Positions 18,270 through 19,740 of a stretch of 46,959 nt of DNA are shown piece after piece. Within the stretch, counting starts at the first letter, position 1. The number at the start of each line of letters is the position of its first letter. A program made the position numbers and the translations under genes. Source of the stretch: a virus (Duplodnaviria > Heunggongvirae > Uroviricota > Caudoviricetes); the IMG/VR virus record IMGVR_UViG_2681813454_000002, positions 1 through 46,959 of that record; one strand, 5' to 3'. Under the pieces are notes generated by a model, which saw nothing but the letters and a program-made list of their open reading frames with translations, searched no databases and had not been told where the DNA came from.

Positions 18270-18284
18270 CACTTATTTTCCCTG

Positions 18285-18310
18285 GCTCGCTTTTGCGGGC
18301 TTTTTTTTAA
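18285..18310 (+). terminator. Terminator-like hairpin plus T8 after the tRNA cluster
   Basis: GCTCGC-TTTT-GCGGGC (one G.U pair) followed by TTTTTTTT. Confidence 0.4.
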
Positions 18311-18314
18311 ATGT

Positions 18315-18530
18315 CTCACAATTCAGGCGGTTGACTGTTGTCTGGTTTGCGGGGAGTTTGTTAAAAGAAACTGGCATGGTGAATCCCCCTGTGCGGAGGG
18401 GCAATCAGCGAGTAGGTATATGGGATAATCGCGGATTCAGGTGCTGGTACTGAATTCACCGGGAGGCACCCGGCACCATGCAATGGCACATAGCGCCACT
18501 CTCCAGCCCCTCTCCGGAGGGGCTTTTCTG
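18315..18530 (+). ncRNA. Candidate structured small RNA, repeat unit A
   Basis: Conserved blocks shared with unit B (CATGGTGAATCCCCCTG.GCGGAGGGGC, TCACCGGGAGGCACCCGGCACCATG) ending in a CCCCTC-TCCG-GAGGGG plus T-run terminator; no credible ORF. Confidence 0.4.
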
Positions 18531-18782
18531 TGCCGGATACATCACAGTTTCTGGAACCTTAGGTACTACAGTATCAGTCAGGGTGCTATATTTTCAGATG
18601 TGATGAAAGCCTGTCAGCAGGCAGGGCGTATCGGAAATGACCCAGTAGAGAAAACGTTGACTCAGATACCGGTGCTGAGTTACCGGGAAACCGGCATCAC
18701 ATGACCGCTATCCTTCCAGGCCCATCCGCTCCGGTGGGCCTTTTTACTGCAGAAAACAGGTTCCCCGTTAAATGCTATGTTG

Positions 18783-19017
18783 CTCACAATTCAGTAAGTT
18801 GACAGTTGCCTGTCAGACTGGGCATTTGTTAAAAAAATTTCGCATGGTGAATCCCCCTGAGCGGAGGGGCGACTGGTGACGGTATAATCTCTGATTATCA
18901 AAACGAGAATGACGCGGGTTTAGTGGCACCGGGCTGAACTCACCGGGAGGCACCCGGCACCATGTGCATGATGATACAGATACGCGGCTTTAGCCCCTCT
19001 CCGGAGGGGTTTTCTTG
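18783..19017 (+). ncRNA. Candidate structured small RNA, repeat unit B
   Basis: Second copy of the same conserved blocks and the same terminator hairpin (18994-19016); no ORF conserved between the copies. Confidence 0.4.
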
Positions 19018-19020
19018 TGG

Positions 19021-19050
19021 GCAAAAAAGCCCGCGCTGGGAGACGCGGGC
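19021..19050 (-). terminator. Hairpin plus T-run oriented for leftward transcription
   Basis: Plus strand reads A6 then GCCCGCG-CTGGGAGA-CGCGGGC; on the minus strand this is a stem-loop followed by U6. Confidence 0.35.
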
Positions 19051-19243
19051 GGCAAGGAATAAACAATAAAACGTGAAGTAATATTTCAGCTGGCGAATAA
19101 TACCCCATAGTAATCACTCTGCGCAACTGCGCGGTCTTTTTCGAATTGCGGGCTGTCGTCTCTCTTCTGCCATTGTCCTGTAACTTCCGGACTTCAGCCC
19201 GCTCCTTATTTTACTCACAATATTATCCCGGCCGGGAGGATTC

Positions 19244-19471
19244 ATGGCATTTAAACACTATGACGTGGTCAGGGCGGTATCGCCGTCAGACCTTGCGAAA
19301 CGACTGACACAAAAACTGAAGGAGGGCTGGCAGCCGTTTGGTAGTCCGGTGGCCATAACCCCTTATACCCTGATGCAGGCGATTGCAGCAGAAGGTGATG
19401 TGGTGGTCAGTGGTGCAACTGAGCCGGATTGGTACTACGTCATCGTACTGGCCCGGCATTCCAGGCCATAA
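19244..19471 (+). CDS. Hypothetical protein (75 aa)
   Basis: RBS GGGAGG before the ATG. Confidence 0.5.
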   Translation: MAFKHYDVVRAVSPSDLAKRLTQKLKEGWQPFGSPVAITPYTLMQAIAAEGDVVVSGATEPDWYYVIVLARHSRP

Positions 19472-19740
19472 AAGACAGTCTGGCAGTGGGACTAAATGCA
19501 CTGACGCTGATGGATATTACCAAAAATGTAACGTATGGCGTTGAGATAGAAAGTCTGGTGCTGGAGATAAATGCACCGGTATCATCATAAAAAGTGAGCC
19601 AGTCAAATGGAAGGTATCGTTAAACTCACCGGTAGTGTCAGTGGGTCGTCTGAGATGCCTGCATGAGTTATCAGAGCCATCAGTACTTAACTGGTGGCTT
19701 TTTTTATTGTTGTCAGCTTCCGGATAACGGGAGACGGGGT

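Follow-up and report, generated by a model that had tools for sequence, protein, structure and literature searches.

The slot between the tRNA genes and the holin gene

The interval described here covers positions 18270–19740 of the window, the whole stretch of 46,959 nucleotides that was analysed, and differs from the UTI89 sequence at only 8 positions over its full length. On its left, three plus-strand tRNA genes at 18020–18269, tRNA-Ile2(CAT), tRNA-Arg(TCG) and tRNA-Arg(TCT), match the ileZ-argN-argO cluster of Stx phages, following the RefSeq (UTI89) and Sakai annotations; the first is called Met(CAT) by ARAGORN and tRNA-Ile, ileZ, in RefSeq for UTI89 and in the Sakai record. An intrinsic terminator located 3′ of this cluster (18284–18308, plus strand) forms the left edge of the variable slot, and homology with Stx2 phages stops at 18307. 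The right edge is the gene of a class II (phage 21-type, S21-type) holin (19741–19956, plus strand; PF04971, E = 9e-33), followed by a DUF1327/YdfR gene, a lysozyme gene and, at the Rz position, a gene named 'lysis protein' in RefSeq. Another plus-strand terminator hairpin (19673–19708), ending about 33 nt 5′ of the holin start, travels with the holin gene in relatives, being kept at 87–93% along with it in Sp5, Lys12581Vzw and EPEC PP4. This is the succession of three tRNAs, slot and holin/lysis genes given by the first-pass annotation. The same annotation placed Q before the tRNAs; the order is right but the two are not adjacent, Q (15528–16349) being separated from the tRNA cluster by an ORF of 65 aa and the gene for a DNA methyltransferase. 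A methyltransferase gene near the slot is frameshifted in the window.

In Stx2 phages, a 1339-bp stx2AB cassette stands in for window positions 18308–18783. The flanks of this cassette in phages Lys12581Vzw and Sakai Sp5 match the window on both sides, with the tRNA cluster and terminator on the left (17869–18307, 90% identity) and an STnc100 gene and the start of an esterase gene on the right (18784–19351, 88.8% identity, i.e. 89%, in Lys12581Vzw and 78% in Sakai Sp5). The interval is therefore homologous to the toxin slot of Stx phages, as had been proposed. No match to stx2A or stx2B was found in the window and no toxin domain in the ORFs tested in the interval, in agreement with the initial report of a slot free of toxin genes. 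Seven other ORFs of 53–93 aa lie in or overlap the interval without any Pfam match, the sole Pfam-recognisable ORF being one of 75 aa with a DUF1737 domain. The site was also said to be an insertion hotspot, and it does vary among relatives, which carry stx2AB, iraM, differing sRNAs, and intact or deleted esterase genes. Comparison of relatives across the interval had been set beforehand as the test of whether it is a conserved spacer; its content varies instead.

Three plus-strand STnc100-type units and a convergent gene

The two repeat units noticed in the first pass are real, with repeats D1 (88 nt, 80% identity) and D4 (31 nt, 97%) spaced by 468–484 nt. They correspond to two sRNA genes of the STnc100 family (Rfam RF02076) on the plus strand, unit 1 at 18374–18532 (136.3 bits) and unit 2 at 18842–19019 (161.0 bits). 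Both matches are full-length (model positions 1–206), exceed the gathering score of 47 bits and are far past chance (E = 3e-31 and 1.5e-37). The fold of unit 1 contains the closing helix, the hairpins and the terminator. Unit 2 lies in the stretch homologous to sequence found 3′ of stx2B and by position corresponds to EcOnc27/sRNA103; the STnc100 gene of Sakai Sp5 scores 208 bits (L128 3923–4128). The statement that the slot holds two such units only has to be amended, as a third, related unit is present between them at 18598–18749. The minimum free energy (MFE) folds of all three share the RF02076 consensus architecture, a closing helix enclosing hairpins and then a 3′ terminator. Fold z-scores for the three units and the minus-strand gene described below are modest, from −1.3 to −2.6.

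Each full-length unit is preceded by a conserved upstream region on the plus strand with a putative promoter. For unit 1 (region 18315–18373), it would consist of a −35-like TTGTCT (18338–18343), an 18-nt spacer and TG-T-TAAAAG (18359–18367); for unit 2 (region 18783–18841), of TTGCCT (18806–18811), 18 nt and TG-T-TAAAAA (18827–18835). Alignment puts the unit 1 region in register with the TTGACT-18-TAAAAA promoter of EPEC PasD, and the probable +1 position of unit 1 was taken from the PasD 5′ end. Candidate promoter elements of the sRNA genes are TGTTAAAAG, TGTTAAAAA and TGCTATATT, and we infer that the four sRNA genes use their promoters. A consensus promoter scan did not detect the −10 candidates TAAAAG and TAAAAA, in which the usual T at −7 is missing, so the sRNA 5′ ends could instead arise by processing of longer transcripts.

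The middle paralogue is strongly diverged. It extends over 18584–18749 (plus strand), with an extended −10 TGcTATATT (18584–18592), an RNA at about 18598–18749 and a terminator at 18718–18741. Its match to RF02076 reaches 30.1 bits (E = 4.2e-5 in a 247-nt search), under the 47-bit gathering score, and it is a structural relative of STnc100 that is no member of the family by Rfam's rule. Its MFE fold is isomorphic to that of unit 1 (z = −2.6). The closing helix is formed by GCAUGGUG/CACCAUGC in unit 1 and by AUGUGAUG/CAUCACAU in the middle unit, 4 of the 8 pairs being altered on both sides and thus compensated. At a threshold of at least 90% identity, the middle unit was found in 672 of 5426 complete E. 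coli genomes (12%), and 11 of the 12 matches listed carry no annotated feature. Identities in the 672 genomes fall nearly all in two bands, and its own covariation is thin because the loci fetched contain two alleles only. The Rfam threshold in its present form misses this common branch of STnc100.

A fourth sRNA gene, not reported in the first-pass annotation, lies on the minus strand at 19024–19215. It belongs to the EcOnc42/21/08 group, starts at about 19203 to 19215 and ends in a terminator with its stem at 19050–19029 and its U-run at 19028–19023. The stretch that holds it (18934–19463) is 90% identical to EPEC PP6 at the sRNA E2348C_1409.E2348C_1408.IGR, which is linked to the EcOnc42/21/08 names in table S6 of PMC8550237. 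Side by side, the two RNAs match nearly base for base, terminator included. The fold has a z-score of −2.2, and a promoter-like site, ATGCCA-17-GATAAT, is present at 19250–19222. The convergent terminators seen in the first pass are those of unit 2 (18992–19011, plus) and of this gene (19050–19029, minus), placed back to back 17 nt apart. The two genes form a dyad (18842–19215) of the kind found at the moron site of lambdoid prophages, on opposite strands, 3′ of the late promoter pR′ (16355–16382) and 5′ of the holin gene (19741).

Other identities for the minus-strand RNA were rejected. AsxR (RF02703) and AgvB (RF02702) gave no Rfam match at E ≤ 1 in 17500–20500, and the same test applied to Sakai Sp5 finds AsxR with 88 bits; an OmrA-B match was at chance level only (21.8 bits, E = 0.52), and the RNA is not AsxR, AgvB, Esr41 or OmrA/B. 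An origin as the remnant of an iraM cassette was rejected too, since comparison with the iraM segment of phage 813R8 revealed no homology; in relatives, iraM can occupy this very position of the slot.

We surveyed 120 IMG/VR loci seeded by an exact 23-nt motif within hairpin 4, a choice that inflates conservation in that hairpin and biases the sample. Nineteen of the 120 loci, unmatched by any probe for an STnc100-type unit, were not assigned to a class; 15 of them matched none of the reference features. Among 88 distinct family members, hairpin 3 is canonical at 97% with double changes at 7 of its 8 pairs, as against only 51% for the linker 'hairpin'. Scaffold identity is 88–98%, compared with 48% in the variable loop (25–50 nt, 38 distinct sequences) and 37% in the linker. 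The family combines a conserved scaffold (8-bp closing helix, hairpins 1, 3 and 4, terminator) with hypervariable, cassette-like segments in the internal loop region and in the linker directly 5′ of the terminator. In the window the pre-terminator linkers of unit 1, the middle unit and unit 2 lie on the plus strand at 18482–18504, 18705–18717 and 18950–18991. As the predicted seed of PasD lies in the linker, and linkers and loops vary, the three units could carry three different target specificities; for the same reason, targets are not transferable from the EHEC and EPEC copies studied, from which these segments differ. We tentatively raise a broader possibility, which we consider doubtful at present: that STnc100 is a modular sRNA platform, in which recombination exchanges unrelated 25–50-nt loop cassettes and 15–41-nt pre-terminator linkers (the seeds) within a conserved, covarying scaffold, with the triple array giving the ExPEC prophage three specificities and amounting to a virulence- or fitness-relevant RNA cargo equal to a protein moron. 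If this were true, an RNA array including a deeply diverged paralogue missed by Rfam would stand where Stx phages carry their toxin. The conserved scaffold and swapped segments provide concrete candidates for the target-recognition parts of the family.

Two possible leads on targets were discarded. The loop of unit 2 (18888–18902) can pair with the 3′ coding region of the holin gene (19911–19925) over 15 nt at 87%, and about two such chance matches are expected, by estimate, in 2.1 kb. The motif CTCACAAT, similar to the target motif of PasD, has three copies in the interval and 5 in the window against 1.8 expected, 5 being reached by 4 of 100 shuffles; this enrichment is weak because two of the three interval copies stem from duplication.

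A disabled esterase gene, late control and the nature of the cargo

The 75-aa ORF is present at 19244–19471 (plus strand) as first described. However, it is a truncated pseudogene rather than an intact cargo gene, retaining only the N-terminal (DUF1737) part of a NanS-p-type esterase gene (PF08410, E = 2e-16; partial in RefSeq). Residues 1–70 align with a 618-aa DUF1737+SASA+DUF6645 protein of EPEC PP6; a frame shift follows, and the ORF ends with 5 out-of-frame codons past the junction. The last 47 codons of the same esterase gene remain in another frame at 19448–19593 (plus strand), a remnant that the first pass had missed along with the minus-strand gene. The deletion junction lies at about 19448–19463 and about 1.5 kb is missing relative to L006 3739–5231. 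No SASA domain (PF03629) follows the DUF1737 head, SASA and DUF6645 being deleted in comparison with the 618-aa homologue. Six IMG/VR loci and phage 813R8 (only 85% identity to the window) have the same deletion allele, with the DUF1737 head joined directly to the 3′ remnant. Antisense sRNAs of the PasA/PasC type between esterase and holin genes were also considered: no match was found in the window, and the 153-bp pre-holin segment is not the 438-bp PasA-bearing cassette of EPEC PP2. An overlap of PasA with the holin start was rejected, PasA lying more than 200 nt upstream of the holin gene in EPEC.

The recurrence of this allele would fit a protein cargo, with the 75-aa DUF1737 product acting as a stand-alone protein or small ORFs in the sRNA units being translated. 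Ribosome footprints have been reported on some EDL933 STnc100 copies, whose putative Shine-Dalgarno sequence, 'tatgggata', is also found in unit 1 (PMC5331693). Nevertheless, the out-of-frame end of the 75-aa ORF, its classification as a pseudogene in RefSeq, the lack of Pfam matches for the other ORFs tested in the interval and the extension of the ORFs overlapping the sRNA units through the unit terminators make a protein cargo very improbable. One may also view the interval as the decaying debris of a former cargo region, scarred by duplication and deletion and no longer functional: no intact esterase gene is left, the frameshifted methyltransferase gene is close by, ISEc13 is inserted in the STnc100 gene of EPEC PP6 and the slot content varies freely among relatives. 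Against such decay, compensatory changes keep the structure of hairpin 3 family-wide and of the closing helix in the middle unit, all four sRNA genes have kept their promoter-proximal and terminator elements intact, and the high identity of the middle unit in 672 genomes and the near identity of the interval with UTI89 point the same way. We regard decay as an unlikely explanation.

The late control region lies upstream. Q (15528–16349) encodes a homologue of lambda Q (31% identity, E = 1e-37; PF03589) of 273 codons. Six nucleotides past its stop codon, a late promoter pR′ occupies 16355–16382 (plus strand, outside the interval), with TTGATT, 16 nt, TAAATT and then TGCTCTAACGATGGG; in direct comparison, the lambda promoter reads TTGACT-17-TAAATT-TGACTCAACGATGGG, and its TAAATT-TGACTCAACGATGGG is matched by TAAATT-TGCTCTAACGATGGG. 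The pR′ is followed on the plus strand by a tR′-like intrinsic terminator at 16432–16453 (CCCGCCGCCTGGCGGG then TTTTTT; the terminator proper at 16432–16447), which predicts a terminated pR′ leader RNA of roughly 70 nt. With a Q homologue, a lambda-like −10 and pause element and a tR′, late control appears to be of the lambda Q/pR′ type. The first-pass annotation had placed the slot under Q-dependent late transcription, with very high expression predicted on induction; given a lambda-like pR′ upstream of the slot, Q-dependent read-through in induced cells can be soundly inferred. Upon induction, Q-modified RNA polymerase starting from pR′ would need to pass eight plus-strand intrinsic terminators, three of them those of sRNA genes, before reaching the holin gene.

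This arrangement suggests another role for the repeat units, as cis-acting elements of late transcription control (promoter/qut/terminator modules with a 6S- or StxS-like leader), or as a terminator array insulating the lysis genes from constitutive upstream transcription, with no action in trans. Each unit indeed combines a promoter, a structured RNA of roughly 160–180 nt and a strong terminator, like lambda pR′-6S-tR′. Terminator-like sites are enriched about 6-fold in the region (12 in 17900–20000 against 1.9 ± 1.3 in shuffles), and STnc100 and PasD accompany lambda-type Q genes (PF03589) in many loci. However, the prophage has its own pR′ and tR′ directly 3′ of Q, and phages whose Q gene is far shorter (144 codons) and whose late promoter lies upstream of the tRNAs have STnc100 as well, 3′ of stx2B; STnc100 is thus not tied to one Q type, and we rejected the units as the late promoter/qut/tR′ module for the Q found here. 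Furthermore, hypervariable segments within a conserved scaffold would be needless in a mere terminator, and homologues are bound by Hfq and enter RNA-RNA chimeras with numerous mRNAs. A purely cis-acting role therefore seems improbable, although the units may insulate the lysis genes as a side-effect.

The reading that we prefer, with a probability of about three in four, is that positions 18270–19740 are the moron slot in the late operon of a lambdoid prophage, apparently complete and of UTI89/ST95 ExPEC type, and that its cargo is RNA, not protein: three plus-strand genes of the STnc100/PasD/EcOnc27 type and one convergent minus-strand gene of the EcOnc42/21/08 type, together with a disabled esterase gene. 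The repeat units and terminators, listed in the first pass as what an otherwise empty slot contains, are themselves the cargo, as self-contained sRNA genes of described families. Each sRNA gene ends in its own intrinsic terminator and appears to have its own sigma-70 promoter, which suggests Q-independent transcription from the repressed prophage. Homologues in EHEC, EPEC and Salmonella are known as discrete RNAs associated with Hfq, and by analogy the four sRNAs would be Hfq-binding regulators acting in trans on mRNAs of host and prophage. The Stx-type slot of an ExPEC prophage thus has a cargo even without toxin, namely regulatory RNA genes overlooked by standard annotation: in UTI89, RefSeq has no annotation for any of the four, and one is covered by a spurious pseudo-CDS. 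The content is real but largely ordinary and already known, described prophage sRNA families and the wreck of an esterase gene at the Stx toxin position, the only novel details being a middle paralogue that scores below the Rfam threshold and variable segments of cassette-like nature.

Relation to known prophage sRNA loci

Convergent pairs of Hfq-binding sRNAs at the moron site have been described in EHEC (Tree 2014, PMC4104026), where they lie 3′ of PR′ in eight Sakai prophages (PMC4104026; PMC7873438), and related sRNAs are known in EPEC (Pearl Mizrahi 2021, PMC8550237; Zhu 2026). PasD, which is related to STnc100, is Hfq-dependent and was detected by Northern blot and RIL-seq (PMC8550237). 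In EDL933, 11 STnc100 copies are transcribed without induction, as seen by RNA-seq and Northern blot (PMC5331693); since homologues are transcribed in uninduced cultures, expression of STnc100-type genes would not require induction through Q. The findings in the window leave intact what is established about sRNA dyads at the lambdoid moron site.

The dyad of Sakai Sp5, EcOnc27 (sRNA103, STnc100) and AsxR (PMC4104026), likewise follows ileZ-argN-argO and precedes a DUF1737-led esterase gene and the holin gene. Its plus-strand member is of the same family, the terminators are convergent and back to back, and the flanks are homologous. In Sp5, STnc100 (plus) and AsxR (minus) lie 3′ of stx2B, with AsxR at the position of the minus-strand gene of the window. 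In contrast, the window lacks stx2AB and has two extra STnc100-type genes instead, its minus-strand partner is of the EcOnc42/21/08 type and not AsxR/AgvB, the variable loop of unit 2 is unlike that of Sp5, and the esterase gene is deleted.

PasD1 and PasD2 of EPEC E2348/69 (PMC8550237; Zhu, Shabalina, Storz 2026 preprint) share with the units of the window the 5′ end GCAUGGUGAAUCC, the promoter register, the succession of structured 5′ body, linker and terminator, and a location between a lambda-type Q gene and the esterase/holin genes. Yet their similarity to the window units does not extend past the first ~40 nt; the CACCGGGAGGCACCCGG hairpin is missing from PasD, and the PasD seed UGUGAG is absent from the units of the window. 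The lambda pR′-6S RNA-tR′ module and StxS resemble the units as a promoter, short structured RNA and terminator between Q and S. The prophage has its own such module at 16355–16453, whereas the STnc100 units are separate from it, about 2 kb downstream of pR′/tR′, without a lambda-like pause element and associated with unrelated Q types.

The closest overall synteny is with the late region of EPEC E2348/69 PP6 (tRNAs, STnc100, minus-strand sRNA, esterase, holin, YdfR, RrrQ). The minus-strand sRNA, esterase-head and lysis-cassette blocks are 89–90% identical, and the PP6 holin protein is identical to that of UTI89. PP6 differs in having a single STnc100 gene, split by ISEc13, two tRNAs only, and an intact 618-aa esterase.

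Layout of the slot and its late promoter

The interval between the tRNA genes and the holin gene (18270-19740) contains two repeats (18374-18532 and 18842-19019, both on the plus strand), convergent terminators and a 75-aa ORF (19244-19471), all located where the first-pass annotation had placed them. The gene order that it proposed was correct for the tRNAs and the holin, endolysin and Rz positions, but not for an adjacency of Q and the tRNAs: between the antiterminator gene Q (15528-16349) and the tRNAs lie a 65-aa ORF and a gene for a DNA methyltransferase. The latter is split by a 1-base deletion at 17777, relative to the UTI89 locus, into ORFs 16922-17806 and 17773-17970, and is either a pseudogene or the product of a sequencing error. 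ARAGORN located the three tRNAs at 18020-18269 (plus strand); the first, with a CAT anticodon, is a tRNA-Ile gene (ileZ) according to both RefSeq and the Sakai record. The holin gene (PF04971) starts at 19741 and is followed by DUF1327/YdfR, lysozyme and, at the Rz position, a RefSeq 'lysis protein'. The holin N-terminus, MYQM, carries Met1 and Met4 (19741-19752), which we take to resemble the dual-start motif of phage 21-type holins. As for the supposed emptiness of the slot, the DUF1737 ORF was indeed the only ORF tested with a Pfam match (the seven others gave none), but the slot holds STnc100-type and minus-strand sRNA genes. The slot is real and not empty, and its arrangement is already known.

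A lambda-like pR', TTGATT-16-TAAATT-TGCTCTAACGATGGG, lies six bases past the Q stop codon (lambda pR', TTGACT-17-TAAATT-TGACTCAACGATGGG), and is followed by a tR'-like GC-rich hairpin with a T-run at 16432-16453. This pR'/tR' module (16355-16453, plus strand) is unannotated and bears lambda's own pause element; the lambda AACGAT was reportedly described by Ring, Yarnell and Roberts in 1996 as a sigma-70 pause element. From this module, a terminated leader RNA some 70 nt long would be expected, as an analogue of 6S or StxS. The Q protein is homologous to lambda Q and carries an inserted zinc-finger segment. With a lambda-like pR' and a Q homologue, Q-dependent read-through of the slot upon induction can thus reasonably be expected. 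Eight plus-strand intrinsic terminators are found from pR' to the holin gene (16432, 16758, 18284, 18505, 18718, 18992, 19119 and 19673).

STnc100 units and the convergent sRNA gene

Both repeats match Rfam STnc100 (RF02076), with 136 and 161 bits for a gathering score of 47, and between them lies another match with a lower score (30.1 bits, E=4.2e-5; 18574-18747). Folded alone, the RNAs of unit 1, of this middle unit (18598-18749, plus strand) and of unit 2 adopt a common architecture: an 8-bp closing helix, starting at the first nucleotide, encloses a 5' hairpin, a variable region and two more hairpins, and is followed by a linker and an intrinsic terminator. Between unit 1 (GCAUGGUG/CACCAUGC) and the middle unit (AUGUGAUG/CAUCACAU), four of the eight closing-helix pairs are altered on both sides with pairing retained, and we therefore regard the middle unit as a diverged paralogue that has been maintained, not as a decayed copy. 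Of 5426 complete E. coli genomes, 672 have this unit, with identities that fall into two bands (at least 99%, and 90-95%), and 11 of the 12 matches listed had no annotated feature beneath them. None of the four sRNA genes is annotated in the UTI89 RefSeq record, where a partial 'hypothetical protein' pseudogene overlies unit 1 on the minus strand (4365-4490 of the UTI89 locus; window ~18365-18490).

In EPEC, RNA-seq defines the 5' end of PasD1/2 as GCAUGGUGAAUCC, and by homology we infer that units 1 and 2 start at 18374 and 18842. In the alignment, PasD (TTGACT-18-TAAAAA), unit 1 (TTGTCT-18-TAAAAG) and unit 2 (TTGCCT-18-TAAAAA) have a common promoter register, with a TG two bases 5' of the -10 in units 1 and 2; in the middle unit, TGcTATATT stops six bases short of the closing helix. 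These elements are the putative promoters of the units, and the sRNA genes would then appear not to need Q-driven read-through. Because the -10 elements are weak and none was called by a consensus promoter scan, the 5' ends could also come from RNA processing. CTCACAAT occurs on the plus strand at 18315 and 18783, 5' of both full STnc100 promoters, and at 19214, in the promoter region of the minus-strand sRNA; its five copies in the window, versus 1.8 expected, are a weak enrichment. The target motif reported for PasD is CUCACA.

Among 88 distinct STnc100 units, mean pairwise identity was 88% for the 5' helix and hairpin 1 and 98% for hairpin 4 and the 3' helix, the latter partly inflated by the seed motif of our survey. 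It was 48% for the internal loop region (25-50 nt, 38 distinct sequences) and 37% for the pre-terminator linker (15-41 nt). Hairpin 3 showed 97% canonical pairing, with double changes at seven of eight pairs; a putative linker hairpin showed 51%. The predicted PasD seed lies within the corresponding linker, and therefore the linker and internal loop are the likeliest target-recognition segments, by analogy. The variable loop of unit 2 (18888-18902) is complementary at 13 of 15 positions to holin mRNA at the 3' end of its coding region (19911-19925), which is the estimated chance level.

Convergent with unit 2, the minus-strand gene (~19215 to 19024) ends at a terminator at 19050-19029, giving an RNA of about 180-190 nt. 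The stretch containing this gene has 90% identity with prophage PP6 of EPEC at the site of sRNA E2348C_1409.E2348C_1408.IGR, equated by its authors with EHEC EcOnc08/21/42 (PMC8550237).

Exchange of slot contents among related prophages

Over its full length, window 18000-19960 shows 99.4-99.5% identity to a prophage of ExPEC/APEC strains such as UTI89, S88, IHE3034 and ATCC 11775, with eight positions differing from UTI89 within 18270-19740. Among 5426 complete E. coli genomes, 109 have the entire arrangement and 3353 have pieces of it. Elsewhere the window is filled with ORFs whose sizes and order are those expected of integrase, replication, terminase, capsid, tail and tail-fibre genes, and the prophage therefore looks largely complete. 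In the early region, adjoining Rfam matches to isrK (58.7 bits) and C4 antisense RNA (81.4 bits) at 9056-9244 (plus strand) suggest a P1/P7 immI-like antirepressor control module. A strong IS009 match (225 bits) lies close to the tail-fibre end (46354-46552, plus strand).

The 75-aa ORF, marked partial in RefSeq, aligns over its first ~70 residues with the start of a 618-aa DUF1737+SASA+DUF6645 (NanS-p-type) esterase of EPEC PP6. About 1.5 kb of the esterase gene (PP6 locus L006, 3739-5231) is absent from the window. At the deletion junction there is a short GCCGG/GCCCGG similarity, and the frame shifts there; five foreign codons precede the stop, and the last 47 esterase codons are kept in another frame (19448-19593). 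In PP6, ISEc13 lies inside the STnc100 gene (L006 1600-3151), and the 138 nt to its right are 100% identical to window 18389-18526.

We surveyed 120 IMG/VR loci found by an exact 23-nt motif of hairpin 4, a sample biased by this seed, and recognisable STnc100 units were present in 101 of them. Directly before the first unit were tRNAs in 67 loci and stx2B (6) or stx2A (1) in 7; past the last unit were the minus-strand sRNA (41), iraM (26) or, directly, the esterase head (22). One unit was present in 85 loci, two in 15 and three in 1. The middle unit, present in 11, was flanked by two full units in all nine loci with sequence beyond both its sides; in the remaining two, a unit is seen on just one side. 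Several loci (e.g. L023, L030 and L043) match the arrangement of the window exactly except that their esterase gene is intact, and the deleted form was found again in six. The contents of the interval are thus varied: it is a modular, frequently exchanged region and no conserved spacer, as the first-pass annotation had anticipated. The ST-unit probes had no match in 19 of the 120 loci (L011, L014, L020, L021, L035, L049, L050 and 12 more), which carry the exact motif; 15 of them were without any reference feature. They may represent STnc100 copies from different phage backgrounds or from other genera.

Comparison with Stx phages and known sRNA loci

The proposed correspondence with the toxin position of Stx phages is borne out by flanks that the window shares with Stx2 phage Lys12581Vzw and Sakai Sp5: on the left, window 17869-18307 (methylase remnant, tRNAs, terminator), and on the right, 18784-19351 (STnc100, minus-strand segment, esterase start). 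Between them, Stx2 phages have a 1339-bp stx2AB cassette whereas the window has 476 bp comprising unit 1 and the middle unit. In place of the minus-strand sRNA, Sakai Sp5 has AsxR, abutting STnc100/EcOnc27, and phage 813R8 and 26 IMG/VR loci have a minus-strand iraM gene.

Tree et al. (2014; PMC4104026) described morons tolerated downstream of Q-antiterminated PR', with convergent sRNA genes there in Sp5 and seven other Sakai prophages; a review gives the same account of convergent sRNA genes at the moron site (PMC7873438), and STnc100 3' of stx2 was reported again in 2025. EDL933 has 11 STnc100 copies with transcription without induction (PMC5331693), Salmonella copies are RpoD-bound, and PasD, linked to STnc100, is Hfq-dependent. 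To this, our analysis adds an ExPEC prophage with a triple STnc100-type array, a common paralogue beneath the Rfam threshold, cassette-like variable segments, and two sRNA genes exactly equivalent in position to the stx2AB cassette.
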